Made by a program: the position numbers and the translations under genes | Shown here: piece by piece, positions 21,940-56,700 of the stretch | How the letters are laid out: each line of letters opens with the position of its first letter | How positions within the stretch are numbered: the stretch's first letter is position 1 | Notes under the pieces: model-generated | Told to the model about the DNA's origin: nothing | What the model saw: only the letters and a program-made list of their open reading frames with translations | The model's database searches: none | Assembly (NCBI GenBank): GCA_023920165.1 | Contig: CP089274.1 | Location: 3,844,001-3,908,000, forward strand | DNA length: 64,000 bases | DNA from: Curvularia clavata | Taxonomy: Eukaryota | Direction: 5' to 3'

Positions 21940-23538
21940 ATAGGTACGAGCGTTGTGTCCAGTCTGCTTACAACACCCGCACCGCCTCTCTCCTCGCACC
22001 CTCTTCAACGCACTCTCACCGTCGCCACGACTACTACCCGCCTATTTAGCTAATACTTCTTGTACTTCGCCTATAATAAGAGTCTTTTCTATCCGTATGT
22101 ATCGCCACTTGCGGCTCTTACGCTTATTTAACTCGTTAAGAGCCGCTTAAAGAGTAGTAATTTTCTCTATTAGAAGCACCATCTTATGTGCCATTTGCTA
22201 AGCCTCTTTACTTAACTGCGCGATCTGCTTAGTAGGTAAATTAGCAGAAGACCCATAGCGATTTCTCACGCTCTATTAAATAAGACTAATTTAAGCCTTA
22301 ACCTCGCGCGCGTTGCGTAGTGTCTGCGCCTCCTAGGCGGCTGCCTATCGCGGTGATTGATGTGGTGTCTACACTACTACATCAAGCTTTAATAGCACAG
22401 CCTATAGATCGTGTAGAACTAGACTAGCGCCTCTAAAGCCAGCTTAGATATTCTCCTTCGTAATAGACTGCTTAAAAGCCGCCTTAAAGGCTAGTAGGAA
22501 GGTCTCTTTACTAATATAGTTGGTGCGGTTGCGTACCAAGCCTGAAACAGCGTCGCCATACTTGCGCTTTAACGGCGAGAAGCAGACGACGTTAAGAGGC
22601 TGCAATAGATAAGACGAGTGCGCAGGCATATAGAGAAGAATGATATTCTTCTCCTTATAAAGATCTTAAAATTCGACGGAGTAGTAGCTCTTATAGCCGT
22701 TGATAATTAGTAGTTGATACCTACCTGTAGTATACCTCTTTATATAGGTATTAAAGTGCTCTAGCTAGATAATACTAAGCTAATTATTTATCTAGCTATT
22801 AGGACTAACTTTAAGAATCTAGTCGGCAGGCAAATTTTCAAACTAGACGTTAATAAGCACCTTGCCCGTAAAGACAATAAAAGGTGGTATCTAGCGACCT
22901 AACGCGCCCACGCCTTAGATTATAGTAACCTACTTACAGTTATCTAGCTATACCTGCTTCTTTTTACTATATTCTTCTAAGCCTATAATAACTAACTATA
23001 ATAAAATCTTACCTATTATAAAGCTAGTCTTATTAAAGTTATAGATATTATTATCTATAATACTCTACTTCTACTTCATCGCCTAGACTAAGTCAAACTA
23101 GCGTTAGATAGCTACTAGATCCTTATAGACGGCTCGCTAGTAATTATAGAAACGGCTCCAGCGCGTACAGATCTCAGGAGTTCGCTTAATAAAGTTATCA
23201 ACCTAGTTCTTACTAGTAAAGTTGCTCTTCTACTTATATAATAGTTTATTAGCTATTACTCGAACGTCAGCCTTTATAGACGCAAATCCTCGCGTAGATT
23301 CTTTAAGAATACGCTTAACTATAGCCTCCTCTTCTAGCTTATTTAGGCGCTTTAAATTCGGTTCGCAGTCGCGTTAAGAGCGTCTTCCAGCGCGTCGGTA
23401 AGACAAAGTTCTTTAAGGCACGTTATAGATAGAGATAGCACGTCTTTAGCTTTAAACACGTTGCAATTGGACATTAAAAAGAGTAAGTTGAAGATCTAAT
23501 TCAGAATAAGTTAATTGATTATCGCGTTGCTGAGACAT
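21940..23538 (-). pseudogene. RIP-inactivated pogo/Fot1 DDE transposase of element A
   Basis: Fragment MPAHSSYLLQPLNVVCFSPLKRKY (normally HLLQPLD), C-terminal CGVCKQTGHNART, many TAA/TAG stops. Confidence 0.85.
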
Positions 23539-23572
23539 AACGCGTTGTAGTGTCGACGTCGGCGCGCTGGTG

Positions 23573-24024
23573 TGTTAAGAGTATGATCTCGAGTGGAAGT
23601 AATATAAGACTTCTGGTGTCAAGATCTTCTTAGATTGGTTTTCGCGGATAAAGCAATAGTGTGTTATAAATAGAGTTCTGCAGTAACTATTATATTATAG
23701 ATACTATACTTATAACTTAAGTTAAACACATTAAGCTATAAAAGTTTAATACCTACTACTATATACTAAGTAAGTATTCTATATTCTACACTATCCTATA
23801 ATATTTCGCGTTATCCTATGCGTAGGATATTATAGAATTATATAGAATTCTATAGGATACACGTAATATATCCTATAGTGGCGTTCCGCCAAGTATATAG
23901 GACGTGTAATTACTTATACATTATTAGCTAGTAATATAGTTCTCTTTTAAAAAGGTCTCGATATAGGCTTTATTCTTTTTTCTTTCTATATCTTACGCTA
24001 TTCCCCTCTATTAGATTTATAATA
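23573..24024 (-). repeat. 3' LTR of C1 (U3 type 1)
   Basis: tgttaagag...ataata (RIP form of cgtaaca); alignable with the LTR at 46669-48977 over its full length. Confidence 0.85.
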
Positions 24025-24062
24025 CTATCCTCCTCTTCTAAACTTTATATCCTTATAAACTA

Positions 24063-24635
24063 ATAATAATTTCTAAAAGTACTACTTATCGTCACACACT
24101 TAAAGATCGAATTAATCAAATAGACAATCTCGCAATAGTTTCTTATTAATACTATACGAAGAAGAATCTAGAGTATTAGATATCATTATTAAAAAAGAAG
24201 TATAGAAATTACTATCGCAATAGTATAAAGATATACATTCTAGTAGAGGTTCTAGTTCCGAACTTTAAAAAGTTAGACCAAGAGCTCGCGCACTTAGAAC
24301 AACAAGAGTCTAAGATAGACACAGCCAAGGCTATAGTATTACAATCGCTAGTAGCTATTTATACGAAAAAAGATCGTCTTCGTAAATAAAAGAAAATACT
24401 TAAGCATTATAAATAATAGTAGATTAATAAATCTAGGAAGTTTATAGAAAAAATTAAGGCTTTAAAGGCCATTAAGAGTATTAACTAGAAGATAGAGTAG
24501 TTAGAAAATAGCTTAATATCTAGTACTTTAGCTTTAGACTAGAGTGCGTTTATATCTTCTCTTTTAGAGGGCAACCCTAGATACAAGGAGGCTTTATATA
24601 GTAATATTAGTCTAACTTCTATAGGCAGTTTATAA
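24063..24635 (+). pseudogene. RIP-destroyed antisense Zn(II)2Cys6 + coiled-coil gene of C1
   Basis: From 24144 the frame reads TAT-x2-TAT-x6-TAT-x8-TAT-x2-TAC-x7-TAC, i.e. six Tyr codons, each one G>A step from Cys, at Zn2Cys6 spacing; then KLDQELAHLEQQESK. Start and end are approximate. Confidence 0.65.
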
Positions 24636-25304
24636 GGTTTATTTCCTACTTCTATATATTTTCGCTGTAGTCATATCCTAACTACTTAACTAGATACTCT
24701 ATTCCTTTATAGGTAGTTCAGTATGCTAGAATTTTCTCGACTTCAAACTCATCTTCTTCCTCTAGTTCGAAATAGAATATTTTTTGTAGTAGCGTTTTAA
24801 GGTCTACAGGTTTTAATAACTTAATGTAAAATCTTAGGTATATCTTTACATCTAGTAGTAGATTAAGTATATAGATAACTAGTCTATTCTAGACTTTAAT
24901 TAAAAATAGCCTAATATAAATATTATCTAATCTCTTACTTAATCGTGTCGTACGAAGGTTCTTCGTAAGCAGATATACTTTATCTCTTTTTTTTTAGCTA
25001 AAGTGCTATTTTTCTTTTCTAATTAATATATAAGATACTTTAGCGTTGAGCCTTCTTAAGTAATTCTTATAGTTCTTTATATATTTTCTTTATTTCTTTA
25101 GCCATAGCAATAGCTACTTCTATTTTTAAACTTAGTAACGTTCTAGTAAAAAGATTCAGGTATCTTCTGTGGTTTACGTAAAATAGTATTTATTTTATTA
25201 ATTCTAATAATTTATTGTTATATACTAATTATACTATAGGTAGTAATTATATCTAATTATTTTACTAATAGTTAGTATATATTTGTAGATATATTTTTAT
25301 TATA

Positions 25305-27295
25305 CAGTGGGGTGACACGAAAAAAGATCACAAGGAAAAATAGCATTTTTCACTAGGCTATATCTTAGCTAATAAAATAGCTAAAAATATAAAAGCTTAA
25401 GATTTGTATAGAGAATTACCAGCTCTTCTAGTCTATAATCTAAAAAGAAGCTTAGTAAGTATATAGCTCTTAGAAAGAAATGCTGAACTAGTGAGAAAAA
25501 AAAACGTCAACTTTACACGTATTTTTCGCGCTGAGATCTTGCAATTTATATAGCTATCTATATATAGATATATACTATTAGTATATATATATAATATATA
25601 TTTTTTATAGCTATAGTTACTTATCTAAATTAGAAGATATATATATAACTTATATTTTAGTAAATATATAAGATAATAATAGTAAATTACTATCTAATAT
25701 TTTGTATACCAGCCCTTAGCTTCCACTACTCTATTATAGCGTTTGGGCATAGATAAAATACAGCTATCTATGTCTTTTTGTGGTATTTTATGCCACTCTT
25801 GGTGAATAGCTGTAATAAACGTATTTATACTAGTCTCACTAGCGCCAGTGCCAAGACTAGAGCTTGGCAGCTTAGTAAGCCGATTTTTAAGCAAGCTCCA
25901 TACGTTTTCTATTGGATTTAGATCTGGGCTATACGCTGGATGGTCGAAAAGTGTAATTTTATGGCGCTTAAACCAGTCTAAAACGTTTCTAGCTTTATGG
26001 ATTGTTGCGTTATCTTGTTGGAATTTCCAGCCTAAATAGATATAGATTAGCTAACTATAACTGTATAGTTAGACTTATATATATATATTTATATATTTAG
26101 ATATATATATATATATAAGTAAAAATATATAGCAGAACTTACCGCGTTTTATATTCGGTTTTATATATGGTATTAGACATTTTCTAATATAGTGGTGATT
26201 TCGATGTTTTACTACGCTATTTGGCGTCTTAATAACCACTAGATTGGATCTGCCACCTATCCAAATAGCTCCCCAAACTTGGATAGTTATATCATGGGCT
26301 AAAAATTGGCTTAGTCAGCTAGATATATAAGATATAATATATATATATAGTTATATATATATATAAGTATATTTTGGCTTATTAGAAATATTTTTAAACG
26401 TACTTGTATTTTTAGTAGAGTATATTTTTGGATTTTGGTGGTATTTTGGCCTATTTCGAGAAAATTCGGCTCGAGATCCATATCCACGCTGGATTCCAGA
26501 CTCGTCAGAATATACAACTTTTTTAAAGTTAATATTACTGAGCTTTTTAAGCTTATTTTTAGCGTAGAGTAGGCGTTTTTTAGCTTTTTTCTCGTTTAAA
26601 ATTGGCTTTTTTTGACTAGTTGTTATAGTCCAGCCCTCTGCTTTTAAAACTCTTTGAAGAGTTCTACTAGATATTTCTAGATTATTTTCGTTTAATAATC
26701 TATTTTTTGGTTTTTTTGGACTGCGTAGTATATCTCTATTTAGAGCTCTTATTGCTCTAGAAGTTGTCTTAGAAATTCCGCCTAAACTAGCTCTTTTTGG
26801 CTCACTAATAGCTTTATATTTTCGTTTTATTCGAGCTATAGCGTTATATATAGACCGTGGATTTTTTTGAAAGTAATTTATTATATTTTTTATAGGTGTA
26901 TTAGCGTCTAAAAACGCTTTGATTTGGCGTTCGAAATTCGACAGTTGTGGCTCCATTGTGTGGGGAATACAGTTTTAAGTTGCTAGAAATGAAAAGCTAT
27001 AGTTATATACTAGTTGATTACTAATAGCTGACTAAGCTAGTGCTTATGTAAGCTAGTGCCAAAATTTCAAATCTCATATAGCTATTTAACTAGATAGACA
27101 ACTATAGCTTAAAACTATATATATTATATATAAATACTAATAGTATATATCTATATATAGATAGCTATATAAAATAACAAATATCAGCGCCAAAAATACG
27201 TGCAAAGTTGACGTTTTTTTTTCTCTCTAGTTCAGCATTTCTTTCTAAGAGCTATATACTTACTAAGCTTCTTTTTAGATTATAGACTAGAAGAG
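25305..27295 (-). mobile_element. Tc1-like DNA transposon copy 1 (long TIRs; right TIR cut by the C2 LTR)
   Basis: TA|cagtggggtgacacg terminus; inserted at a TA in the C1 integrase; right TIR stops at 27295. Confidence 0.88.
25694..26956 (-). CDS. Tc1-family DD34E transposase, 3 exons, 348 aa, intact
   Basis: Exons 26956-26404, 26298-26143, 26031-25694 total 1047 nt. Motifs SDESG, VWGAI, FQQDNATIH, SPDLNPIENVW; 34 residues between the second D and E. Confidence 0.87.
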
Positions 27296-27718
27296 TGTTA
27301 AGAGTATGATCTTGAGTGGAAGTAATATAAGACTTCTAGTGTCAAGATCTTCTTAGGTTGGTTTTCGCGGATAAAGTAATAGTGTGTTATGAACGGGGTT
27401 CTGCAGTAACTATTATATTGTAGGTACTGTACTTGTAACTTAAGTTGAACACATCGAGCTATAAGGGCTTAATACCTATTCCTATATACTAAGGTGTTAT
27501 GCAGAGTGCTCTATTGCTCTGTCGTGCCAAGCACTACAGATTAATAGATTAAATGCACGTTGCTCTATTGCTCTATTCTGCTAAGCGTTATAGATCACAG
27601 AGCACATCACGTGATCTAGTGCGGCATGGCTGTAGGATTGCGGCGCAGTACCTATACGTAGGAATTCTCCAAACTGCTTACTAGCTCGTGCGTATTATAG
27701 TTTTCCAGGGTCGTAACA
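27296..27718 (-). repeat. 3' LTR of C2 (U3 type 2)
   Basis: First ~195 bp shared with the C1 and C3 LTRs, remainder different; ends gtcgtaaca, followed by the PPT complement ctattctccctctct. Confidence 0.85.
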
Positions 27719-27876
27719 CTATTCTCCCTCTCTATTAGTTTATCCTCAAACTTAAGATCTTAGGGTTATTATCTAGAGAGGCGTATTTAGAGTTACTAGT
27801 TAAGTAGCGTTTCGGTAGTACGCTATAACTGACTTAGTCTCTTATTATAGGCGTTATCGCCCTGCTATCGTTTATT

Positions 27877-28458
27877 ATACTAAAATAATAACCTTTGTCC
27901 AGTACTACTCATTGTTCAGCCCTTGCTGATTTCGTAGATTCTTTTAGTACCATTATAGTTTAAAAATGCGAAGCGTGTGTGAAAAATAGGCGGGTGTACA
28001 AAGTGTATATTTGCTTAGGGAAGTGTAGCAAGTGTCTTTATCGTAACTAGTGCTATAATATTCGGGTTATAGAGTCTGAATTTAAACGTTTTACTTTAGA
28101 GAAAGAGAAGTTAGAGGCGCGCATAAAGGAGAGTCAGGAAGCTTAAGATACTACTATACGTTTGTATAAGTAGGCTTTAGAAAAGCTTCGTACGCAACGT
28201 ACTTGGGAGTAATATTTACGTCTTTAGATGGATTTATTAGAGTATCGCACCAAGGAGGCGATAGCGGTTAAGAGTAGGGAGCTAGAAGAGTTAGAGTGGG
28301 GTGAGGTTATAGAGTTTCCTAAGTTGGGCTCTTCTCTTATCCTTTCTCCTAGTACCTAGAGTGCCTTCGAGGGTTTGCCTTTAGATTACTAGGAACCTCT
28401 TAACGTAAGTTTACTTGTTGCCGGTGGTACTAGGTCAAGTATAGGCGGCAATTTATAA
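27877..28458 (+). pseudogene. RIP-mutated antisense Zn(II)2Cys6 + coiled-coil gene of C2
   Basis: CEACVKNRRV[Y]KVYICLGKCSKCLYRN*C[Y] from 27967, then EKEKLEARIKESQEA. The de-RIPed start reads like MPKQQP..ST..R.ALADFVDSFGTIM, similar to the D gene. Confidence 0.75.
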
Positions 28459-29778
28459 AGTTTGTTTTCTATTTCTATATATTCTCGCTGTTGTTATATC
28501 CTAACTATTTAACTAGGTACTTGGTTTCTTTCCTTATAGTGCGGTGTGCTAGAATTTTCTCGACTTCGAACTTATTTTCCTCTTCTAGTTCGAAATAAAA
28601 TGTTTTTTGTAATAGTGTTTTAGGGTCTGCGGGTTTTAGTAGCTTAATGTAAAATCTTAGGTATATCTTTACATCTAGTAGTAGATTAAGTATATAGATA
28701 ACTAGTCTATTCTAGACTTTAATTAAAAATAGCCTAACATAGATATTGTCTAATCTCTTGCTTAGTCGTGTCGTGCGAAGGTTCTTCATAAATAGATATA
28801 CTTTATCCCCCTTCTTTAGCTAAGATGCTATTTTTCTTTTCTAGTTAACATATAAGATGCTTTAGCGTTGAGCCTTTTCAAGTAATTCTCGTAGTTCTTT
28901 ATATATTTTCTTTATTTCTTTAGTTATAGCGATAGCTACTTCTATTTTCAAACTTGGTAACGTTTTAGTAAAGAGATTTAGATATCTTCTATAGTTTACG
29001 TAAAATAGTATTTATTTTGTTAATTCTAATAATTTATTATTATATACTAGTTGTGCCATAGGTAGCAGTTATACCTAATTATTTTATTAGTAGTTACTGT
29101 ACATCCTAAAGTATGTCTTTATCGTGCGATTTGTTCTTTCTATTTGTCCATTAGTCTCCGGGTAGTATGCTGTAGATAGCTTCTGCTTAGTGCCTATTTC
29201 TACTATAAGTGTGGTCCAGAAATTTGATATAAAAAGCTTATCTCTATTGCTAATGATTGTTTTTGGTATTCTATAGTGTCTAATAATTCTATTAAGAATA
29301 ACGTATGCTAATTGCACTGCGGTATAGTCTTTTCTAAATAGTATATATTCTATATATTTCGTAAATCTATTAATAACGACTAATATCGCGTCGTAGGTTA
29401 TTCTAGTAATAGGATCTATTAATAGTGGTAATCCTGTAACGAAGTCCATGGAGATGTCTATCCAAGGGGTGTTTGGCAGTTCTAGTGCTTGCATTTCTCC
29501 ATATAGTGCGTGTGTGCTGTACTTATTCTTCTAACAGTATTCGCATTTAGCGATAAAAACTGCGACCTTTTCCTTTATTTTGCTAAATTCGAAGTTTCTT
29601 CAAATCAGTTCTATTATTCTAGCGATCCCGGGATATCCATATACGGGGTCGTCATAATATTACTAAATAATTACTTCCTACTAGTCTTTAGATATATCAT
29701 TTCTAATTATCATAAGCAGGTTAAGCTCGTATACTAGGCTCAATATTCCGTCTTTATTTATCTATAGTATCAGTCAGT

Positions 29779-30049
29779 TGTAACGGCGCGAGCAAGACTA
29801 GTCGAATCGGTTCCGGTGGGAAGTGTCACTCAAATGCATATGGAAGTGCGTGGGACAGCAGAAACACCTTGGATTCGGTAGACACTCATAGGCCTGGTAC
29901 GAAAGGATATCAAAAATCTACCGAACATCTATGGAAGGTACCTGGTACTTATACCTGGGTGCGGGTCTTCATCGGGTCTGACCCGGCTCTCAATCGGATC
30001 TTGATAAGCTGCCCTGGCTGGGGTATGTTTTGGTCTATGCATGGTTACA
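29779..30049 (-). repeat. 3' LTR of B1
   Basis: tgtaacggcg...atggttaca; same sequence as 36704-36974. Confidence 0.93.
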
Positions 30050-30534
30050 TTACCCCCCCTCCCGGTAGACAGCTGGTCCCACAGCTGTCTGTTCCGGTTG
30101 TCATTCTTCTTCCCTGCACCATGGGGTCCCTCGTTCCTGATTTCCCCCAGATTTTCCCCACACTGCGCCACTTCGGGCAATAGGATGCTCCGGTTCCGGT
30201 GTGGCTCCCGTGGCCGTGCATGTCCTTCACTTGAGCCTCTGTGCCTGAGCCTCAGTGACCATTCCGGTACTCACGTGGCGCTGCTGCCTTGCTGCCTGGC
30301 CGCTAGGCCGTTTGCCTTCACCTGCCAGACAGGCCTGGACGCTTCGATCGGAGCTCCGAGTCGCCGGCGATTCGTTTGTAGTCAGGGTCCAACGGCTATC
30401 CAGGTCACGTGTGCCAAGACTGTTTGCTCCCCCAGTGTGTATATCAACAACAACACAGTGTCGCCGCCGAGTTTTCTCCTCCACGCTTCTCAATCAAAAC
30501 AAGTCAATTACAACTCAACGCACTCGTTTTCGCT

Positions 30535-31202
30535 ATGCCTCTTCGTTGTCCGCCCGGTGCGCTGCCGGATGCGTATCGCTTCATCTGTCTGCGAGCTGTC
30601 CGCGCCTTGGCGCGCCGTCAGTTCGACATTGCTTACGCCTACCCGTCCGATTCCTCCAAGAAGTGTCTTTATTGCACCCAGCAGAAGGAGAAGTGCGATC
30701 CTGTAAGTTTGCTTCTCTTTTCCTTCACTGTTTGCAGCTTGGCTAACCCGGATAGGTTCCCGAGTACGTCTTCGAGGAGTTTCACGATTTGATCGATGCC
30801 ATCGAGTTGTGTGCCATCGCTCGGTATGGCCCTGCAGTTGATGCCGATACGGAGGTATTGCTTGATCGAATCGCTGCCGCCGCTTTGGACATCGCCCGCA
30901 AGGTCCAAGTTGTCAGGTCCCAGGAGAAGGAGCTTTCAGTCAATCAGCTCCTCGTCGCCCAGAACCAGGTCCTGAGGGACATCCGAGACAGCATCTCGGA
31001 GTTGGTCGATACAGTCAATGGCATGGAAAGGCGCCTTTCGCGTCTTGAGGCCAGGTCGGCTCGGGGTGGCGCCCGGGTCGGCCCTCGGGTCGAGGAGTCG
31101 GAGGAATGGTCTGGTTTGTCCTCCTCCTCAGAGGAGGACAAGGGTGCGGTTGACCAGGAGATGGCCGACGCTGAGCAGGAGCGCTCTGATGTTGAACTTT
31201 GA
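30535..31202 (+). CDS. Spliced antisense accessory gene of B1 (204 aa; Cys motif, coiled coil, acidic tail)
   Basis: Exon 1 30535-30702 (MPLRCPPG...ICLRA...KKCLYCTQQKEKCDP), intron 30703-30755 (GTAAGT...GCTAAC...ATAG), exon 2 30756-31202 in frame with the 137-aa ORF. Confidence 0.75.
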
Positions 31203-31300
31203 GTGAGGTGACATTTTGGGGGTTTGTTGGTGGTTGTGGGGTTCGGGTCCGAGTTTCCTTTGTTACTGATACCCAATGAAGTTTCTGTTTTTCCTTTTCT

Positions 31301-34300
31301 TTAAATTTTGTCATCCTGCAGTGAAGTCATATCCTCTGTGCCTTGTTCCCATGCCGTGATCCACTTGCCAAGGGAACGTGGGGGTCCCGGTTTGGTGGGA
31401 TGTTGTTCATGGAAGAGTTTGAGCTTGTGTGGGGCTCCCATGAAGTTTGAGGCTGGGTACCAGGTAGGATCCGGGTCATGTCCGACCCACCGTACTTGGT
31501 ATTTTAGGTTTGAGCGGTACAACTTGCTTGCTAGGATTTCTTCTACCTCCCATTCTTCCACGCCTTGGATGGGAGTTGCTGGGGGCTTTGGAGGTTCTTG
31601 TCCTGGGAGGGGGTCTTGAGGATCTTTGCATAATAGATCCGGGGCGAAGACATCATGGATCCGGGACCTTTTCGGAAGGTCCAAGCGGTATGAATGTCCT
31701 ACCTTCTCAAGTACCCTGAAGGGTCCCTCCCATTTGGAGGATAGCTTCCTACTCGGACGGTCTGACGCGAGGTTCCGGGTACTTAGGAAGACCATGTCTC
31801 CCACATCCCAGTCAACAGAACGACGATGGCGGTTGACTGTGGTTCGCATCCTGTCCTGGGCTTTCTCCATTTGTTCCTTAGCTACCTTCCATGCGTCGTG
31901 CATGCGGGTAGCCATTTCCAATGCATCCTTATGGTTGAGTTTGTCAGTGGGGGTGAGAAGGCTGGTGGAATGTTTCCAGTCCCAACTCTGCCGGGGTTCG
32001 GAACCATATAGGATGTGGTACGGGGACATGCCAATGGAAGAATGTGGTAGGGAAATTTGAGCACGATCGATCAAAGGTAGAAGTCCACTCCAGTTGTCTT
32101 GGTAGTAGGATACGAATGGGCGCAACCTCTGATCGATGTACTTATTCATAATCTCTGTCTGACCATCCGTTTCTTTGTGGTAGGCGGTTGACAGCTTGAC
32201 CTTAACGCCTAGGATTCGGCAGAATTCCGACCAGAAGCTTGAAATGAACTGTGGTCCTCGGTCAGAGACTATGGTTTCAGGTGTGTGGCCAAATCGGTAC
32301 ACCCATTGAACGAATAGGTCGGCCATTCCCCTTGCATCAATAGTCTTGTGGCAGGGGATGGAGATGGCCTGCTTAGATAACCGGTCGATCACGACCATGA
32401 TCATGTCGTAACCGGATCGGTCTCGGGGAAATTCCTTAAAGTCGATGCACAGGTGCTGCATCGGCCGGTCAGGAATTGGCAAAGGATGAATCATCCCTGG
32501 AATTCGGGTCTGTCTAGGATGGGCCTTCCTACAGGCTATGCAATTCCGCACATACCTTTTACAGGTGGATTCCATACCCTTCCAGTGGTACTTCTGGGAC
32601 AGTAGTTGGTAGGTCTTCTTTGCACTGGGGTGCGCTGAGGATACCTGGTCGTGTACTTCCCGAATGAGGCGAGTCACAAGGGTAGAGGTGGAAGGAATGC
32701 ATAGGCGGTTGGAATAGAGCAGGAGTCCGTTTTCGATCCGGTATCTGTCCGGAAGGGACCTTCGCTCTGCCCCAAACGAGGCTCGGTTCTCTTGTAGGAT
32801 AGACTCGATCAGCTCCAGCGAATCGAGGGACATCGGCTCCGATATGGGCTCAACTACAAGTAAGGAGAAAGATTCCGCTTGGAGTTGGGCTACATAGGTC
32901 TTAGCAAGTTCGGAGTTGATTCGGTTGTCAAGTCGGTGCGGTCCCAGGAGGACCCGCGAACGGTTGTCAATTTGGGCTGTCTTCAGATTCCCCACATCTT
33001 GCTCCCGTCGGGAGAGGATGTCAGCACGAGCATTATCCTTTCCGGGGGTGTATCGGATGTGGAAATTGAAGGATGCCAACTCTTCCGCCCATCGCACCTG
33101 GCGGGCATTCAGAACTTTGGTAGTCATGAAGTATTCAAGGGAACGGTGGTCTGAGTACACGTCGACACGAGAGCGTACCGACAGCAGTTCAGGTCGCCAC
33201 TTGCTAAACGCCGTTACGATGGCGAATAGTTCTTTGTCGTGTATTTCCCAGTTCAGCTCAGACCCGGATAGGACCTTGCTGAAGAATGCTACAGGACACC
33301 AATTTCCATTTGGCTGCTTTTGGGAAAGAACGCCTGCCACAACGCCATCGGACGCGTCGGTCTCCACCTTGGTATCATACTCTGGATGGTAGTGGTACAA
33401 GGTGGGAATTGCCAGCAGTGCAGATTTTAACCTTTCAAAGGCTTGGTCGCACTCCGAATCCCATACGAATGGTCTTGAGGGGCTCTGGAGGGCGAGGAGA
33501 GGTTTCGCAATTCGCGAGTATTCAGGAACGAACTGCCTGTAGAACCCAGTGAACCCTAGGAACGACTTCACACCAGTAACGGTGGTAGGTCGGACCCAAT
33601 CTTGAAGGGCTTCCACCTTGTCAGGGTCCACCTCTAGACCTTGGTTGGTCAAAATGTACCCTAGGTATTTGGTCCGAGTGACATGGAATTCGCTTTTCTT
33701 GATGTCAACTTGGAGACCGGCTTGCCTAAGCCTTTCCAAGACCTGTTGTACGTGGCGGGGGTGGTCCGGTTCCGATTCGGAGTAGATCAAAATGTCGTCT
33801 AGGTAGACTATGCAGAAGCTGTCTAGATAATCAATCAACACATCATTCATGTAGCGTTGATATGTTGCAGGGCCGTTGCATAATCCAAAAGGCAACACTT
33901 TGGACTTGTAGGTTCCGTATCTAGTGCGGAACGTGGTGTACTCCTCCGAGTCGGGGTGCATTCGGATCTTGTTGAATGCCGCACGTATGTCGAGCTTGGT
34001 GAAGATTTTCGCCTTGTGGGTGCGGGCTAGAAGCTCGTCAATGCGTGGTATCGGATACGCATCCTTTCTGGTGATTGCGTTGAGTCGGCGGTAATCTACA
34101 CAGATGCGAATGTCTCCGTTTGGCTTCCGAACACAAAGGACTGGGGAGGCGAAGGGGCAGTGGCTTGGGTCAATGTGTCCTTTCCTAAGGTTTTCCATTA
34201 CGAACGTCTTGGTGGCTTCGAGTTCTTCAGTGCTCTGCTTGTACAGAGGACTGAATTGATTCGGAAGAGGTTCGGTCAGCACAATCTTATGATCGTATGG

Positions 34301-35236: not shown

Positions 35237-36408
35237 GCCCGGTCCTCCTCCGATAAGTATTCGTGTGCTTCTTCGAATTCTTCCTTCTCTGCTTCGATTT
35301 CTCGAACCCGAGGAATGGGGCACTCATTCGCATAATGTCCAGGTTTTCCGCAGTTATAGCAATTGCTAGTAGTCGGTTTGCTATCCAGTGCGGGGGTCTT
35401 TGAAGGGAACCTGGGGGTATTAGAATGAGCGCGAGATTGGGTCGGAGCTGGTTCGGATCGGACTCCATAAGTGTTTGGGCGGTAGTCCCGGTATTGACTG
35501 ACGCGGGGCTTCGTTGGTGGAGTACGAGAATTATTGGAAGTGGGTTCCGAACCGTGTCCGAAAGGAGTGTTCCTTCTTTCGGTATCGAAGGCAGTAAGGT
35601 GTTGTATCATCTTGTCAAAGGAGTTGTTCCACTGGTGTTTAAATCCCAAGTTTGGAACACGCAAGGCGGGGGTAATTTTTTCCCATAAGTAGAAAAACCA
35701 CTCCGACTTCGATACGGATCCTTTGACGGCAGCACTTATAAATTTTGCCTTAAATTCAGCGAAGGTTTCCTTTTTGTCCATGAGCAAGCGGTGGAAAGCA
35801 GCGCGGCTTTCCGCTTGCTCGTTGCCGGATACGAAGTATGATTTTAGAGTAGCTATCATATCTTCGGCGTTTTGGAACCGGTCCTCCACCGAATCGGCTA
35901 GGTACTGTGGTTCCAGGTATCCCTTGGCGATACCTGTAGTATGTCCCCAGACTAGAGCCATGCGTGCGCGTTCACTCCGATAATGGTCCGCATTGATTGT
36001 TAAGCGGTCCTCTATTGACGCTTGCCATTGGCGGAACGTAGGTTCTGTTCCATCACTAAGGTTATCAATGGAAGGGGTACGTTCTGTGAGTTTGACACGT
36101 AGCAGGTCCGGGGTTGCTGACTGGTACCTTCCGAATTGAGTTTCGGTTGGTTCAGCGATAGTCGGTGGTGATTCGGTGGAGGGGAGAGGTTGATCTGGGG
36201 CTGCGGTGTTTTGGCGGGACAGCCGTGCGATTTGTTCGTTTAGCCTGTCGATCTCTGCCCGAAGGAGGCTAGTCTCATCCTCTTCCGAATCCTCTTCCTC
36301 TTCGACGGCTGGCGGTTTGCCAGGCGTCTTCTCTCTTGACTTCGAATCTTGGAAGCGCGGCGACTTCCTGGAAAGCTCTCCTGAGCCGGATGGGGTTCGG
36401 TCAGCCAT
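35218..36408 (-). CDS. B1 gag with CCHC zinc knuckle
   Basis: 396-aa ORF with CYNCGKPGHYANEC. Confidence 0.92.
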   Translation of the reverse strand: MADRTPSGSGELSRKSPRFQDSKSREKTPGKPPAVEEEEDSEEDETSLLRAEIDRLNEQIARLSRQNTAAPDQPLPSTESPPTIAEPTETQFGRYQSATPDLLRVKLTERTPSIDNLSDGTEPTFRQWQASIEDRLTINADHYRSERARMALVWGHTTGIAKGYLEPQYLADSVEDRFQNAEDMIATLKSYFVSGNEQAESRAAFHRLLMDKKETFAEFKAKFISAAVKGSVSKSEWFFYLWEKITPALRVPNLGFKHQWNNSFDKMIQHLTAFDTERRNTPFGHGSEPTSNNSRTPPTKPRVSQYRDYRPNTYGVRSEPAPTQSRAHSNTPRFPSKTPALDSKPTTSNCYNCGKPGHYANECPIPRVREIEAEKEEFEEAHEYLSEEDRAGNHQA

Positions 36409-36703
36409 CGACGGTTGTCTTCGTGGCTGATGGGTTTTTGGTAGTCTCCGAGTCTCTACCTTGGCGCAATCTACGCGACTTCTCCGAAGTTAACCTGACT
36501 GCAATCAGTACAGGAGGTCCAAACCCAAAGGCTTCGGTCGGCGGGAGATCGAAGGGATCCCGCCTGTGTGTGAATGTGGGACGTAACGGTGTGAAGTATC
36601 CGGAGCGGTTCCGGAGGGACTTGGGCTTGGGCGCGGTCTCAACAAACAAGCTGCGATATTGTTTTGAAGGCCGTCACCGGCTGGGACGAGATTTTTGATA
36701 TAA

Positions 36704-36974
36704 TGTAACGGCGCGAGCAAGACTAGTCGAATCGGTTCCGGTGGGAAGTGTCACTCAAATGCATATGGAAGTGCGTGGGACAGCAGAAACACCTTGGATT
36801 CGGTAGACACTCATAGGCCTGGTACGAAAGGATATCAAAAATCTACCGAACATCTATGGAAGGTACCTGGTACTTATACCTGGGTGCGGGTCTTCATCGG
36901 GTCTGACCCGGCTCTCAATCGGATCTTGATAAGCTGCCCTGGCTGGGGTATGTTTTGGTCTATGCATGGTTACA
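36704..36974 (-). repeat. 5' LTR of B1
   Basis: Same sequence as 29779-30049; followed by TSD TCAGT. Confidence 0.93.
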
Positions 36975-39900
36975 TCAGTCTATAATAATTTTTATCCCTA
37001 TAATATCTAGCCTTCTACTAAGAGCGTCTACTCTACTATTATCTTTTCCTAGTATGTATACGATCTTAAATTTATATTGCCCAAGCAGCTCAGCCCATCA
37101 GATTTATTAGCGGTTAAGGACTTTAGTAGTAGTAAAATAGGTCAAGTTCTTATAATCCGTGTATATAGTAAGTTCTAAGCAGCTATATACGTAGACTCTC
37201 CAGTATTATATACAGGCTACTATAGCTAGTAGTTCTTTGTCATATACGTCGTATCGTTCTTCTAGTCCTAAGAGCTTCCTTGAGTAGTATACTATTAGAT
37301 GCCATTTACTATCAATATAGATACTAGCGCATCCTTCTAGAACTAGATCCAATACGTTAGTTTTAAATTTCAGTAGTACTCCTAGAATAAATATCCTGAA
37401 GTATAGTAATATAGTACATACTTTCTTAATTATTTTAAAGGCGTTATCTACCTTTTCATCCCAATTCTATAGGGTATCTTTTCTCGTAAACTATATCATT
37501 GGTATTACAATTTTCAAGTAATCTTTAATAAATTCTCAGTTAAAGTTCGCAAATTCTAAGAATAACTAAATATCCATAACTAACTTTAGTATCAGCCAAT
37601 TCTTAATAATTTTAATTTTTTCTTCACTTATTTATACTCCATTAGTCCCTACTATATAGCCTAAGAAGTTGACCTTAGTCTTATAAAATTCACACTTCTT
37701 TAGCTTAAGTCGAAGACTGTACTTATCTAGAGCTTTAAGCACCTTTCTAACGTACTTAGTATATTATTCTTCATCCTTAGAGTAGATTAGGATATCATCT
37801 AGATAGACGATAACGAATATATTTAGATAGAGTCTAAGTACATTATTAATAAGTTCTTAAAATATAGCTAGGGCGTTCATTAGCCCAAACAGCATAACTG
37901 TGTATTCGTAGTGTCCATATCGTATTTAGAAAGCCATTTTCTATTCTTCACCTTTCTTAATTCTAATAAGATAGTATCTATCTTATAGATCTAATACTAT
38001 AAAGATCTCTACTTAAGATAGTCAATCCCTAAGTTCTCTAATGTTTAGTAGTAGATATCAATTCTTAACTATAATATTATTAAGTTGTCTATAGTCAACG
38101 TATAGTTAATCTATTCCGTCCTTCTTTAGTACGAATATAATAGAGTATCCCACTAGAAATTTCGACAGTCATATATAGCCTTTCACTAGTAACTTATCTA
38201 TATACTCTCATAGTACTATAAGTTCTCATTCCAATAGTTAATAAATTAGGCCAAAAGTCGGTTACTTTCCTTCCTATAGGACTATTTTATAGTCCTAGAG
38301 TTAGTGCTTTAGTAACGCTTATTCATCTACCACTTCCTAAAATAGATACTCAAATTCTCTATATTATTTAGAGATTTCCGGAGTTGCGTCCTTCTCCTTT
38401 CCTCTAGCTTTATAGTCCGCTAGCCTAGTTTTAGTATCTACTAAGTTTAGCTTCCTACTCTAGGAACTACCTTTCGAGTACGCTCGTTTCTCTACGTTAT
38501 TACACTATTTAGCAATATTACTCTTATCTACCATTAAACTCTACTAATACGTAGGCTGGCTTGCGGTTACGCTTAGTCCGCAGCACTCAAATTTAAACAC
38601 TTTCAACTTCCAGTCAATCCGCGGGTTATATTCTCGTAGCTATAGAAGTCCTAAAATAATATCGTAGATAGCTAGTCTAAGGATTAGGCATTAGTTCGCC
38701 GCTAGCGACATATAGTAGGTATAGCTCTTATTTCCACTATACTTTAAGTCCGGCTTATTATACTGCGTGCGCTGAAACGTAGTTTACCTAGAATTCTAAG
38801 TCTACTAATGCCTATATCTATATTCTATTAAGCTTTACTATAAGCTTAATCAATCCTAGAGAGTTTACTAAGTTAATTTCTCTAAAAAGGCCCTGCCTTC
38901 ATAGCGTCGGCCTAAAAAAGGTTATTCTTTTATAAATCTGTTGTAGATCTTTTCTATTTTATACTTTTAGCATTCTCCTATAAGATAGGTGTGCTATAAA
39001 GGCTAGTTGCATGCTTGCTATTCACTATACTTAGTTTGTATAGTGCGGGTTAACTGCATATCTACTACTTCCTTTAGACTACTTCTCTCTAGAAAGTATA
39101 TCGCTGTGCGTTTATCCTATAGATGTCTTACGCATTCTACATTAGTATATTCTAACCATATCTAGTTACATTTAGAGTATCTAGGAATATTAGTTAGATT
39201 CCAGTCAGATCCTTGTTTAGCTTGCCAATATATTAGGTAGAAGTTATAGACGCAACCTGTCCAGTAGATCCACACATACTTGTAGTTATTTGCGTAGTAC
39301 TAATAGAGACTAAGTTAGTACTAATTATTACGTATCCAGTCTGCTTATGCCTTCTTAGCCTATTAAGGTGTCGTTATAGAGTTCTCTTTCTAGAATATCT
39401 TCTTATCTTCGGGGAACTCCGTGTTTTCTTATAGTCGTTGGATATTAGCCGTAATATACGTGTAGTCTGGTAGTTTCTAATTAGTTATAATAGAAAAAAA
39501 GTTAATATCTAATCTAAAATTCTATATATCTTTATATATATAAAGAAATATATTAGGCTTATTATAATTATATCTGTGAAGGGGTTAATTCAAGAGTTAT
39601 TATAGTACGTTGGTCTGTAGTTCTATATATTTTGGGTCATCCCTTACGTGTGGAATTTCTAGTGAGGCGCTGTTATGGCGTAGAGTAGCTAGTTGGTGTT
39701 TCTTCTTAAACTTAGCCATCTTCTTATATTTAGTCTTGTGCGTAGGAGTTTCTTCTTTTTCGCTAGATATTTTATACTTTTTATCGCTACTTAGTTTAGT
39801 TTTAGTAGTGTTCTTAGATGTGGTAAACGTGACATTCTCTAGTCTACTAATAAGTTCCTCGTCGTCTAGGTAATATTAGATCTTAGCTAGGGTGATAATA

Positions 39901-40356
39901 TTCTATCTTTTATTATTATCTAATTCTAATTTCCTGCGTAATACGTTGAGTTGTTATTTAATCTTATTAGTATCTTTACTTCGATAGTCTCGTACCATAT
40001 AGCCTTCCTTACCACAGACGTAGTAGTTAAACTTCTTCTTACCCTTAGATAGTTTTTTGTTAAACTTAGTAGACCCGTTGCCTTTATTAATATTGTTAAA
40101 GTGTATTAGTTCCGCACTATATCTATAATAGGCTCCTAGGGTTCTAGACGCGTAGTTTTGCTGTCGACCTTCGTTCGGGTAAGCACGTCGATAGCTGTAC
40201 TTCTTAGGTCGTTCGTTCGTGTATCTCTAGCTGCGCGTTCCCTTACTAAATAGTCGTTCTTCTAATGAGAGTTCGTAGAGTTTGTTATCCAGTCGAATAG
40301 ATTCTTTAATAAGTTTTTCTAATATACTAATACTAGCTCTACTTCGTATAAGTTCC

Positions 40357-40782
40357 TGTTAAGAGTATGATCTTGAGTGGAAGTAATATAAGACTTCTGG
40401 TGTCAAGATCTTTTTAGGTTAGTTTTTGCGGATGAAGCAATAGTGTGTTATAAATGGGGTTCTATAGTAACTATTGTATTATAGGTACTATACTCGTAAC
40501 TTAAGTTAAATATATTAAGCTATAAAGGCTTAATACCTATTTCTATATACTTATAGTGCTTGCAACCCTTGGTTAGAGGAGTCTGAGTAACTCTTGGTAG
40601 CTTATATACAAGGAGTATTCCTCTGTAGCTTATGCACGAGGAGTCTGCCAAGACCCTTCTTTAGATATGCGCCACTAAAGAGGTTATATGATGCGTGCCC
40701 CTGCGTTATATATAGCTAGGTTGACTGGTCGTCAATGCTTCTTAACTTAACCGCTATGCTTTTTTCTTCTAGGTTCGTAATA
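40357..40782 (-). repeat. 3' LTR of C3 (U3 type 3)
   Basis: Shared first ~190 bp, then a unique segment; ends ttcgtaata, followed by the PPT complement. Confidence 0.83.
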
Positions 40783-40837
40783 CTATCCTTCTTCTCTCTA
40801 AGCTTGTCCTTAAGCTTTTCTTTATATCTAGCTAATA

Positions 40838-41350
40838 ATGTCTGTCTTTAGGTCTAAAGAATATTTTCGTCTTGCTTTTGAGATTTGTCGTAATGGTCTC
40901 CCTATATCTGTCTCCTGCGATTATTGTTTTGCGAACAACCGTCAGTGCGTTGCGATGCCCGAAGTTGATGGTAAGCGTTTGAAGTACTCTGAGTGCACTC
41001 GTCTGGGTTACCTATGTGTTAATATGTCGTGGGTGTCATTAGATAAGACTTATAAAGAGTATTAAAAGAAAGTAGATAAAGATAAGTAATTATTAGCTTA
41101 AGTGATTTCGCAGTTGATACGAAATAAGAAGATTCTGAAGTAGGCTGAAGAACGTGCTACGAAGAAGACTATATATTTAGCAAATTCCTTACGCGAAGAT
41201 AGTGATAATATAGATACGCAAGAGTCCCTAAACTGCCCCGCGGCCGACGCGTTAGTAGGGTTCTCGCCTATTATGTAGAGTACTTTGGGTTCTCTAGACG
41301 CCCTGGCGTCGTTTTTGAATCCTGGCGATATTTCTGTTTTTTCTTCCTGA
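40838..41350 (+). pseudogene. RIP-mutated antisense Zn(II)2Cys6 + coiled-coil gene of C3
   Basis: MSVFRSKEYFRLAFEICRNG..CDYCFANNRQC-x12-[Y]SECTRLGYLC; the frame continues through RIP-type stops (from CAA/CAG/TGG) to TGA at 41348-41350. Confidence 0.8.
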
Positions 41351-44300
41351 TAGTGAGTTCTTTTTATAGTTTCGTAGTGTCTTTTAATAATTGCTAAGAT
41401 TATCTTTTAGTTTCTATGTATTTTCGCTGTTGTCGTATTCTAACTATTTAACTAGGTACTCAGTTTTGTTGCGCGTGGTTTGGTGTGCTAGGATTTTCTC
41501 GACTTCGAATTCGTCTTCTTTTTCTGGTTTAAAATGGAATGTTTTTTTGTAATGGCGTTTTGGGGTCTGCAGGTTTTAGTAGCTTAATATGAAATCTTAG
41601 GTATATCTTTGTATCTAGTGGTAGATCAAGTGTATAGGTGACTGGTCTGTTCTAGGCTTTGATTAAAAATGGCCCGATATAAATGTTGTCTAATCCCTTG
41701 TTTGGTCGTGTCGTGCGAAGGTTCTTTATAAGTAGATATACTTTATTCTTTTTTTTTAGCTAAGATGCTATTTTTCTTTTCTAATTAATATATAAGATAC
41801 TTTAGCGTTAAGCCTTCTTAAATAATTCTTGTAGTTCTTCGTATATTTTTTTCATTTCTTTAGCCGTGGCGATGGCTACTTCTGTTTTTAAACTTGGTAA
41901 CGTTCTAGTAAAGAGATTCGGGTATCTTCCGTGGTTTGCGTAAAATAGTGTTTGTTTCGTAGATTTTAATAATTTGTTATTATATACTAGTTGTGCTATA
42001 GGTAGTAATTATATCTAATTATTTTGCTAATAGTTGGCGTATATTCGTAGGTATGTTTTTATTATATAGTTTGTTCTTTCCGTTTATCTATTAGTTTTAA
42101 GGTGGTATACTATAGATAGTTTTCACTTAGTACCTATTTCTACTTAGAGTGTAGTCTAGAAGTTAGATATAAAGAGCTTGTCTCTATTGCTAATAATTAA
42201 TTTTGGTATTCTGTATCGTCTGATAATAACGTCTAAGAAGATATGCGCTAGTTTAACTATATTATAGTTTTTTGTAAATTTCCTAAATTCTGCGTATTTC
42301 GTGAATCTATTAATAATAACTAGTATCGTGTTATAGATTGCACTAGTAACAGGGTCTGTTGATAGTGGTAATTCTGTAACGAAGTCTATAGAGATGTCTG
42401 CCTAAGGGGTGTTTAGTAGTTCTAGTGCTTATATTTCTCTGTATGGTGTGTGTGTGCTATGCTTATTTTTCTAATAGTGTTCGCATTTAGCGATAAAGGC
42501 TGCGACTTTTTTTTTTATTTTACTGAATTCGAAGTTTTTTTGAATTAGTTCTATTATTCTGGCGATTCTAGGATGTCTGTGTATGAGGTCGTTGTGATAT
42601 TACTAAATAATTACTTTCTGTTAGTTTTTAGATATATCGTTTCTAATTATTATAAGTAGGTTGAGCTTATATGCTAGACTTAGTGTTCTATTCTTATTTA
42701 TCTATAGTATTAGTTAGTTTATAATAATTTTTATCTTTATAATATCTAGCCTTCTACTAAAAGTGTCTACTCTACTATTATCCTTTTCTAGTATATATAT
42801 GATTTTGAATTTGTATTGCCTAAGCAGCTTAGCCTATTGGGTCTGTTGGCGGTTAAGAATTTTAGTAGTAGTAAAGTAGGTTAAGTTCTTATAATCTATA
42901 TATATAGTAAGTTCTAAGTAGCTATATATATAGACTCTCTAGTATTATATATAGGCTACTATAGCTAGTAGTTCTTTGTCGTGTACGTTATATTGTTCTT
43001 CTAGTCCTAAGAGCTTCCTTAAGTAGTATGCTATTAGATACTATTTGCTATTAATATAGATGCTGGCGCATCTTTCTAGAGCTAGGTCTAATACGTTAGT
43101 TTTAAATTTTAGTAGTACTTCTAAAATAAATATTCTGAAGTATAGTAGTATAGTGTATACTTTTTTAATTATCTTAAAAGCGTTATCTATCTTTTCATCC
43201 CAATTCTATAGGGTATTTTTTCTTATAAGCCGTATTATTAGTGTTATGATCTTTAAATAATTTTTAATAAATTCTTAGTTAAAATTTATAAATTCTAAAA
43301 ATAACTAAATATCTGTAACTAACTTTAGTATTAGCTAATTCTTAATAATCTTAATTTTTTCTTTACTTATTTATACTCTATTAGTCCCTACTATATAGTT
43401 TAAGAAGTTAACCTTAGTCTTATAAAATTCATACTTCTTTAGCTTAAGTTGAAGACTATACTCGTCTAGGGCTTTTAGTATCTTTCTAACATACTTAGTA
43501 TATTATTCTTTGTTCTTAGAATAGATTAGGATATTATTTAGGTAGATAATAATAAATATATCTAGATAGGGTTTAAGTACGTTATTAATAAGTTTTTAAA
43601 ATATAGCTAGGGCGTTTATTAGCCTAAATAGCATAACTATATATTCGTAGTGTCTATATTATATTTAGAAAGCTATTTTCTATTCTTTACCTTTCTTAAT
43701 TCTAATAAGATAGTATCTATCTTATAGATCTAATACTATAAAGATCTCTACTTAAGATAGTTAATCCCTAAGTTCTCTAATATTTAGTAGTAGGTATTGA
43801 TTTTTAACTATAATATTGTTAAATTGTCTATAGTCGATATATAGTTAATCTATTCCGTCCTTCTTTAGTATAAATATAATAGGGTATCCTACTAGAGATT
43901 TTGATAATTGTATATAGCCTTTCGCTAGTAACTTATCTATATACTCTTATAGTACTGTAAGTTCTTATTCTAATAGTTGGTAAATTAGGCTAAAAGTTGG
44001 TTGCTTTCCTTCCTATAGGACTATTTTATAGTCTTAGGGTTAATACTTTAGTAACGCTTATTTATTTACTATCTTCTAAAATAGATACTCGAATTCTCTA
44101 TATTATTTAGAGATTTCTAGAGTTGCGCCTTTTTCCTTTCTTCTAGCTTTGTAGTCTGCTAGCCTAGTTTTAGTACCTACTAAGTTTAGCTTCCTACTCT
44201 AGGAACTACTTTTCGAGTACGCTCATTTTTCTGCGTTATTATACTATTTAGTAATATTATTCTTATTTACTATTGAACTCTGCTAATATGTAGGCTGGCT

Positions 44301-56639: not shown

Positions 56640-56700
56640 CTTTGACCACCCACGGATTCGGTAAGCGGTTTAACACCAAGCGTCCGATTGAGATATCACC

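Follow-up and report, generated by a model that had tools for sequence, protein, structure and literature searches.

A U3 and antisense-gene block exchanged between chromovirus backbones in Curvularia clavata and metagenomic relatives

A 64,000-nucleotide stretch of the Curvularia clavata genome (assembly GCA_023920165.1, contig CP089274.1, positions 3,844,001 to 3,908,000; the whole of it is called the window here) contains three copies, C1, C2 and C3, of a long terminal repeat (LTR) retrotransposon, family C, in which the U3 part of the LTR and an adjacent antisense open reading frame (ORF) form a single block, or cassette. We are highly confident that the antisense gene is real, is under purifying selection and is constant in the lineage, and that U3 and gene together have been swapped repeatedly between near-identical backbones. 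Family C represents a lineage of Ty3/gypsy chromoviruses from Pleosporales-like ascomycetes. For the explanation as a whole, including a function of the antisense protein in regulating its own element, we have a slight preference.

Comparison of the three copies shows a shared backbone interrupted by unrelated cassettes. In self-comparison with blastn, U5-R up to the TATA-like ctatatact (the first 195-199 bp) is 89-90% identical among copies, and pol-end similarity resumes at 24624/28447 and 24650/41412, with 84-87% identity over ~660 bp; between ctatatact and the pol ends of C1, C2 and C3 nothing is alignable at E 1e-10. Transversions per 50 columns of a three-way alignment number 0-1 in R-U5 and 0-2 in pol (24737-25286), and typically 11-22 in the cassette. 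Over ~4.4 kb of backbone C2 and C3 differ by 652 transitions and 44 transversions, with 14 of 22 segments of 200 nt free of transversions, five containing 1-4 and three containing 7-15. Because differences outside the cassette are almost only transitions of the type made by repeat-induced point mutation (RIP), the backbones were near-identical before RIP, and the cassettes are unrelated at the DNA level. A preliminary description of this DNA, which proposed that enhancer and gene travel together between the TATA box and the pol end, had pointed out the collinear pol ends and common R-U5, and both are confirmed by the blastn comparison and the three-way alignment; a pol as divergent as the cassette, which it gave as grounds for rejection, is not what is found. 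Its further statement that nothing aligns between the TATA box and the chromodomain end holds in blastn, but not for ~45 nt comprising the LTR tip GTAACA, the polypurine tract complement and a hairpin. The variable block is therefore not uniform and consists in order of U3, this short conserved island and a convergent antisense ORF of 170-190 aa; variability also reaches the last ~100-200 nt of pol. The components of the three copies are listed below by window position and strand.

23568-23572, no strand: target-site duplication (TSD) left of C1, TGGTG, the same 5-mer as at 48978-48982
23573-24024, minus: C1 3' LTR (LTR-a), with U5-R at 23573-23767, ctatatact at 23759-23767 and U3 type 1 at 23768-24024
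24025-24059, minus: C1 conserved island, with the polypurine tract (complement ctatcctcctcttct) at 24025-24039 and the hairpin tttata-tcct-tataaa at 24044-24059
24063-24635, plus: antisense ORF type 1 (aORF1), heavily RIPed, with 10 stops and Cys codons now Tyr
24625-25308, minus: C1 pol 3' end, integrase C-terminus and chromodomain, truncated by another repeat from 25305
27296-27718, minus: C2 3' LTR (LTR-b), with U3 type 2 at 27494-27718
27719-27752, minus: C2 polypurine complement (27719-27733) and hairpin agttta-tcct-caaact (27737-27752, read by eye)
27877-28458, plus: antisense ORF type 2 (aORF2), with 11 stops
28459-40356, minus: C2 internal region, pol to gag, with element E inserted at ~29779-36975
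40357-40782, minus: C3 3' LTR (LTR-c), with U3 type 3 at 40552-40782
40783-40817, minus: C3 polypurine complement (40783-40799) and hairpin aagcttg-tcct-taagctt (40800-40817)
40838-41350, plus: antisense ORF type 3 (aORF3), with 6 stops, the least decayed of the three
41396-46668, minus: internal region collinear with C2, from pol to the gag start near 46650
46669-48977, minus: C1 5' LTR (LTR-d), U3 type 1, in two parts (46669-46799 and 48657-48977)
48978-48982, no strand: TSD right of C1, TGGTG, matching the left TSD

All four LTRs lie on the minus strand, as self-blastn and the junction sequences agree, and begin with TGTTAAG at 23573, 27296, 40357 and 46669. Read on the plus strand, each runs from U5-R through the TATA complement ctatatact and U3 to its GTAACA end, and LTR-a, LTR-b and LTR-c are followed by a polypyrimidine run, the hairpin, a plus-strand ORF and the minus-strand pol end. 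The antisense ORFs are not part of the LTR but lie beyond it, with the polypurine tract on one side and the pol stop on the other. The three divergent ORFs had been placed earlier to within a few bases, and are read through their 10, 11 and 6 stops. The recognition of 46669-48977 as the other LTR of C1, carrying U3 type 1, is borne out by the TGGTG duplication flanking both LTRs; U3 type 1 of LTR-a is 80% identical to 48655-48970 over 316 bp. The C2 hairpin carries one A.C mismatch of the RIP type, and C2 gag lacks ~500 nt of its 5' part at the junction with LTR-c.

Relatives outside the window have the same organization. One scan of metagenome contigs gave 20 loci, 14 with a type-3 ORF and six with a type-2 ORF, and in all 20 the ORF is part of a chromovirus. 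The ORF is convergent with a large pol C-terminus in 19 of the 20, the twentieth ending at the contig edge, and a gene in this position between pol and the 3' LTR, on the strand opposite to pol, is likewise present in 19/20 loci and all three window copies. In loci L019 and L004 the ORF runs 12-56 nt past the pol stop at its 3' end, so that the two overlap. The L004 gag matches Retrotrans_gag and zf-CCHC in Pfam, and its 1058-aa pol contains the domains of a Ty3/gypsy chromovirus: RVT_1 (216-376), RT_RNaseH (467-568), Integrase_H2C2 (628-687), SH3_Tf2-1 (923-982) and Chromo (1003-1052), together with rve (724-806) at 30.5 bits, below the 32.6 cut-off. The window copies contain stops but can be aligned with residues 11-1124 of L019 pol, to which they are 39-56% identical. 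As in LTR elements generally, the LTRs have TG...CA ends (here TGTTAAG...GTAACA), the polypurine complement directly follows the LTR and there is a short TSD (5 bp). Placement in a named clade (Pyggy, Pyret or Polly) was dropped for want of reference sequences.

Outside the window, an exchange is seen between L004 (type 3) and L019 (type 2), whose gag-pol and R-U5 segments are 99.8-99.9% identical by blastn, but which are unalignable over 816 and 867 nt respectively. The left edge of this block falls exactly after CTATATAC, as in the window, and the right edge lies at the ORF stop; going into pol, the initial 200 nt contain 31 mismatches, and the next 5 kb only 0-2 per 200 nt. The same swap is seen in the window, which comes from one genome assembly.

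Between many elements pol differs by 30-45%, and a pol tree was built from 16 elements with element E, the chromovirus nested in C2, as outgroup. L013 (two overlapping copies) and L016 (578 aa matched) were left out, as were L001, L002, L006, L018 and the C1 copy, which are too short. Two pairs of sisters, L004/L019 and C2/C3 of the window, each with 100% support, differ in cassette type. The type changes at least four times on the tree, which is no better than with shuffled labels, and the log-likelihood falls by 1045 units when the five type-2 rows are constrained to form one group (approximately unbiased [AU] test, p 0.0002). In the ORF tree, by comparison, the type-3 clade has 100% support and a branch length of 2.29, and the window ORFs of C1 (on a long branch) and C2 group with type 2. 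The pol tree and AU test thus show repeated exchange. U3 varies while R and U5 are conserved, and LTR type is discordant with the phylogeny of the internal region. The claim of the preliminary description that enhancer and gene move as one block bounded by TATA/R and the pol end is supported by the window copies, by L004/L019 and by the pol tree.

Two further observations concern the structure of these elements. Patches of 7-15 transversions per 200 nt occur at 41979-42379 and 44775-44975 in C3 (29039-29439 and 38956-39156 in C2), and suggest further mosaic exchange within gag-pol or the junction of a C3/C1 recombinant unit. Among the metagenome loci, L005, L015 and L019 (and, imperfectly, L003, L004, L017 and L020) are contigs of 6.2-6.6 kb that are circular permutations with a single LTR, and in three single-LTR contigs the two ends overlap exactly, by 57, 123 and 127 nt; these could be one-LTR circles, tandem arrays, or two LTRs collapsed by the assembler.

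A plausible scenario, and one that we consider fairly probable, is that exchange occurs mostly during reverse transcription of co-packaged RNAs. Minus-strand transfer through R is a known retroviral route. Minus-strand strong-stop DNA would use R to jump to the 3' end of the second RNA, the transferred strand would copy that RNA's U3, polypurine tract and antisense gene, and it would then switch back somewhere in pol. Transfer in R with a free switch in pol predicts a razor-sharp U3/R edge and a graded pol edge, as observed. Such a strand-transfer route for LTR elements is discussed in the parts of two papers that we draw on (PMC10787394, PMC6894440). A less probable but still substantial alternative is exchange at the DNA level, through ectopic recombination or gene conversion between genomic copies, or between complementary DNA (cDNA) or one-LTR circles and resident copies. 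The window lends itself to this explanation, having three units with three cassettes inside one TSD and a C3-collinear gag joined to a type-1 LTR, and the three contigs with exact terminal overlaps fit circles or tandems; gene conversion between LTR subfamilies has also been proposed, in the portion of the source used here, for the crapaud element of Podospora (PMC10787394). The apparent breakpoints, moreover, are edges of non-homology and no proof of crossover sites, and gene conversion would give an equal picture, both of which tell against a firm choice of reverse transcription. Symmetrical conversion tracts, however, predict something other than the asymmetric edges seen, sharp at R and with 31 mismatches in the first 200 nt of pol, and RIP-competent genomes inactivate repeats quickly, leaving little time for exchange between DNA copies. 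The reverse-transcription and DNA routes are not mutually exclusive.

The antisense ORF belongs to a large protein family. Among 1.84 billion representatives clustered at 50% identity, a profile of types 2 and 3 matches 917 clusters at E<=1e-3, of which 258 reach E<=1e-10. aORF3 has 53 homologues of ~170 aa with up to 75% identity, including proteins of Exserohilum turcica, Periconia macrospinosa and Pyrenophora tritici-repentis, and two of them are named Zn(2)-C6 fungal-type in UniRef; aORF2 has 11 homologues at 44-69% identity. No database homologue was found for aORF1, which is placed by its long branch in the ORF tree and by a single weak local phmmer match to the protein P0132 that BLASTP did not reproduce. 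The ratio of nonsynonymous to synonymous substitution (dN/dS) is 0.07-0.19 in seven of nine intact pairs, the eighth being saturated and the ninth (4.5) involving a degenerate copy. ORF types are ~20% identical. The six Cys residues are invariant across types 2 and 3, which also have in common, with little or no change, a KCSEC motif, a helix and an SP..W motif. The window ORFs retain an N-terminal helix, a Cys frame partly changed to Tyr (G-to-A), a long helix and the Trp codon as TAG, and the shared frame of Cys residues, helix and late Trp attributed to all three is indeed common to them. For ten divergent members a cluster look-up was nearly nameless, with one filed under a plant assembly, and ESM Atlas clusters of the family are labelled solely 'hypothetical protein, Ascomycota'. 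Genome annotations list these ORFs as host 'Zn(2)-C6' or hypothetical proteins, though they are borne by transposons. The gene is presumably expressed; a search of sequencing runs with the L004 cassette returned no RNA run holding it, one run sharing 0.06 of its words.

The U3 regions, although unalignable with one another, are alike in plan. Each contains 3-9 copies, in both orientations, of a cassette-specific motif of 6-7 nt, and none of the 13 metagenome U3s inspected lacks such an array. Among type-2 U3s, ACTGAGCA occurs six to eight times by count in L015, L017, L018 and L019, and is seen by eye in L020, with CTGATCA six times in L016, the fifth counted; the C2 U3 of the window has CAGAGCA as its motif, with AGAGCA occurring five times, plus GCCAAG and TCACGTGA. 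Motifs of type-3 sub-lineages are GCTCAC (L001, L003 and L004), GCTCGA (L005), GTCGAG (L006) and CGAGCA (L008 and L011), and the RIP-altered type-1 motif is ATAGGA(T/C), with ATAGGA five times in the C1 U3. The window strings used for these counts overran the LTR ends by 2-10 nt, with little effect on the numbers. A GAGC/GCTC core is enriched in 10 of the 13 metagenome U3s (at most 1 in 300 shuffles reaching the observed count). On the coding strand of the antisense gene, U3 lies directly upstream, and a TATA-like box is found 41-54 nt before the ATG in 5/13 loci with an identified start.

The LTR tip, polypurine tract and hairpin are kept in all cassette types. In 13/15 loci and two of the three window copies the hairpin has an unbroken 5-9-bp stem around a TCCT-like loop. 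Stem sequences covary and are of ten or more kinds, and G-T pairs make several of them more stable on the ORF-sense strand.

U3 and ORF could both be typed in 12 metagenome cassettes (five of type 2, and seven of eight of type 3, L007 being unclear) and at three of the four window LTRs (LTR-c being unclear), and in none of these 15 does U3 class disagree with ORF clade. The independent assortment that would have spoken against a joint block is therefore not seen at the level of types.

The protein resembles the Zn2Cys6 class of fungal regulators, in which Cys spacing follows C-x2-C-x6-C-x5-12-C-x2-C-x6-8-C. The invariant spacing in our family alignments, C-x2-C-x6-C-x8-12-C-x2-C-x6-C, conforms to this. 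When the profile is compared with PDB sequences the top six matches are all Zn2Cys6 proteins (E 0.013-0.55), led by Leu3 at 0.013 and followed by Lac9, Gal4 and AlcR. An AlphaFold2 model has a predicted local distance difference test (pLDDT) score of 70.6 and a helix at 65-120, and the top Foldseek rows for it are nearly all Zn2Cys6 (Put3, Leu3, AlcR, Hap1, Gal4, Pho7 and Ppr1), all with E>=1 and target template-modelling (TM) scores of 0.3-0.48. A homodimer through residues 63-110 is predicted with an ipSAE (interface score) of 0.52, against 0.23 for the best control; at least 80% of contacts are shared between runs and partner pLDDT is at least 72. The mark used for dimers is reached by 21 of 30 proteins solved as one-chain pairs and by none of 23 solved as single chains. 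We refer to the protein as Zn2Cys6-like, as a candidate and not a proven member of that family. A link to DUF3716 (17.9 bits, cut-off 22) was dropped as having no support.

Because a Zn2Cys6-like domain is associated with cassette-specific repeat arrays in U3, a circumstantial argument, we put forward as a possibility, slightly less likely than not, that the protein is a putative self-encoded dimeric factor that binds the U3 array and tunes both promoters. The array would lie between two outward-facing promoters, one being the LTR TATA box directed into R and the other the ORF start region, and the factor would control the sense promoter in the 5' LTR copy plus its own promoter in the 3' LTR copy. 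More tentatively again, the lineage may encode its own sequence-specific factor co-evolving with its own enhancer arrays, with the block as an exchangeable regulatory type of which hundreds would exist across ascomycetes. If this is true, regulatory type would decide which copies switch on together, and subfamilies using the same machinery could compete with one another or escape shared repression.

A rival that we judge unlikely, though well short of negligible, is that U3 and gene are linked by position alone. The antisense protein would then have another role, as a nucleic-acid chaperone, a packaging or nuclear factor or a modulator of host silencing, the U3 arrays would be sites for host factors, and co-variation would come from adjacency at the 3' end of the genomic RNA, with no homology in which crossover could take place. 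Much of what weighs against a self-encoded regulator fits this rival. U3-ORF linkage is expected from adjacency alone, since the parts are 50-160 nt apart with no homology between types, and would arise with or without a functional tie; of the interpretation offered in the preliminary description, it is block exchange on a common backbone that is supported. Pfam Zn_clus (PF00172) reaches 10.5, 17.2 and 18.9 bits in three of seven intact members, below its 21-bit cut-off, and matches neither the other four nor the three window ORFs, and no fold match was found by Foldseek at E 0.001. Gal4-type domains contact DNA via basic residues between the second and third Cys, which type-3 proteins lack (by eye), and the contact pattern of the predicted dimer is antiparallel, whereas the coiled coils of Gal4, Ppr1 and Put3 are parallel. 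The U3 motifs differ from the CGG half-sites usual for the Zn2Cys6 class. GAGC enrichment is weak or absent in L016, L001 and L006, and the core was not found in the window type-1 and type-3 U3s, from which RIP may have erased it. Host-like motifs are also common to the cassette types, with CACGTG in 11/17 U3s and GCCAAG in 10/17. In favor of a self-encoded regulator, the closest matches in sequence and fold are weak but consist solely of Zn2Cys6 DNA-binding domains; the motif changes in concert across the array between cassettes, which drift of host sites explains less easily; and arrays were present in every one of the 13 metagenome U3s.

Two remaining explanations are very improbable. Old, separately evolving subfamilies in which the cassette is merely the fastest part, with no exchange, could draw on the rapid evolution of ORF and U3 (ORF types ~20% identical, pol 30-45% apart), but are refuted by the pol tree and AU test, in which types are intermixed and type-2 monophyly is rejected, and contradicted by C1, C2 and C3 backbones that differ almost only by RIP transitions and by the 0-2 mismatches per 200 nt over ~5 kb of L004/L019. 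The ORFs could equally be supposed to be chance frames in RIPed AT-rich DNA, those of the window having 6-11 stops each, and the L004/L019 pair an assembly chimera, as metagenome assemblers may fuse related repeats; against this are hundreds of intact homologues with low dN/dS, the recurrence of the L019 ORF, with two differences by reading, as the protein P0062 from another source on a 6391-nt contig, and the same edges arising independently in the single genome assembly of the window. A chimeric join that mimics the swap in L004/L019 itself keeps a small residual likelihood, which counts against the exchange of cassettes in that pair.

The closest known system is crapaud, a chromodomain gypsy element of the Podospora anserina complex that is subject to RIP, in which U3 is variable and R/U5 conserved, LTR subfamily relationships do not reach the internal region, and recombination at strand transfer or gene conversion has been proposed for the discordance (PMC10787394, in the sections consulted). 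Family C is thus similar in being a RIP-hit chromodomain gypsy with diversified U3 and discordance between LTR and body. It differs in that the variable block includes a conserved protein gene and the U3 arrays are cassette-specific, whereas crapaud is drawn with two ORFs (gag and pol), and 'antisense' and 'zinc' occur 0 times in the text of that paper as available here. In Tnt1 of tobacco, U3 subfamilies have diversified on a common body, altering transcription-factor sites. The hybrid LTRs of yeast Ty1/Ty2 also have U3 regulatory parts swapped on a common body, with a like effect on such sites, as the same sections relate (PMC10787394). Neither Tnt1 nor Ty1/Ty2 is known to involve an element-encoded factor.

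Other systems are comparable in the gene and not in the exchange. Human T-cell leukaemia virus type 1 (HTLV-1) has HBZ, a basic leucine zipper (bZIP) factor made from an antisense transcript driven by the 3' LTR, and this factor acts on transcription of the LTR. As in family C, an antisense gene at the 3' end has the 3' LTR upstream and encodes a factor-like protein, dimeric by prediction in family C, but one is bZIP and the other Zn2Cys6-like, the host kingdoms differ, there is no homology, and the fungal gene is known from sequence. In yeast GAL1-GAL10, the upstream activating sequence (UAS) for Gal4-type Zn2Cys6 regulators lies between divergent promoters. Gal4 systems share with family C a six-Cys domain with a dimerising helix and repeated sites between outward-facing TATA boxes; the family C protein, at 170-190 aa, differs in scoring below the Pfam cut-off, in having neither middle homology nor activation region, in its antiparallel predicted dimer, and in candidate motifs that are not CGG triplets. 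Plant Tat/Retand elements have an extra ORF between pol and the 3' LTR (PMC11963269, in the part drawn on here). This ORF in a long pol-3' LTR stretch recalls family C, but these are non-chromovirus plant lineages with proteins of unknown function. Some of the extra ORFs are antisense, and to our knowledge neither a Zn-cluster domain nor cassette swapping is known for Tat/Retand. An "additional ORF with unknown function" is named in a 2010 survey of chromoviruses in fungi, though solely in the legend to a figure (PMC2864245). Full-text searches, in a library that does not include subscription journals or Repbase, gave no account of a Zn-cluster gene carried by an LTR retrotransposon of fungi, nor of this protein family as a retrotransposon gene.

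The usual view is that LTR retrotransposons rely on transcription factors of the host. If family C does trade its own factor together with matching sites, it would offer a natural system for the co-evolution of regulators and binding sites, with a bearing on the origin of transposon subfamilies and on element behaviour in RIP-competent, plant-associated fungi.

The arrangement of the three copies also reflects a complex history. The same 5-mer, TGGTG, lies left of LTR-a and right of LTR-d, for which the chance of a match is ~1/1024 per comparison with roughly five flank pairs compared; it follows that the three units lie inside one original insertion. A reading of LTR-d, which is joined to a C3-collinear gag, as the LTR of C3 is rejected, as the TGGTG match pairs it with LTR-a. 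The best reading is that nested insertions in the same orientation were followed by homologous deletion: C1 would have inserted, further copies would have landed inside it, and recombination between shared backbones or R-U5 would finally have removed the right-hand LTRs of C2 and C3. The region 41396-46668 is then probably a C3/C1 recombinant, its left part being C3 and its right end joined to the C1 5' LTR. Homologous integration of cDNA or one-LTR circles would leave an identical array.

Among the other features of the window, we note that the copies lie in an AT-rich, RIP-type transposon nest at 23-57 kb (GC 0.25-0.38) surrounded by DNA of ~50% GC. LTR-d is interrupted by an un-RIPed terminal inverted repeat (TIR) element of 1.86 kb (46800-48656, GC ~0.47) with perfect inverted ends of 57 bp and a TA duplication. 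DNA on both flanks of C1 resembles the family of this element (22379-22713, at 68%, and a TIR-like stretch at 48985-49030), and C1 seems to have landed inside an older copy. Element E (29779-36975), nested in C2, is an intact, un-RIPed gypsy chromovirus (GC ~0.5) with ~271-bp LTRs that are 100% identical. Its gag (396 aa) and pol (1340 aa) frames are open, it is flanked by a duplication of 5 bp (TCAGT), and it seems to have inserted very recently; an antisense Zn-cluster ORF is absent from it. Older copies of element E are at 49187-50310, 53583-56132 and 63551-63999. A repeat at 25305-27295 parts the C1 pol fragment from LTR-b and has a second copy, 91% identical, at 50315-52456; the former has inverted arms of ~205 bp (25423-25627 and 27295-27091). 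Direct repeats of 511 bp at 56133-56643 and 63044-63554, 6.9 kb apart and 99.8% identical, are probably the LTR pair of another young retrotransposon, the intervening DNA having an AT skew of 0.22-0.38. Finally, 6978-7880 is internally repetitive, with copies that are ~70% identical at offsets in multiples of ~105 nt.

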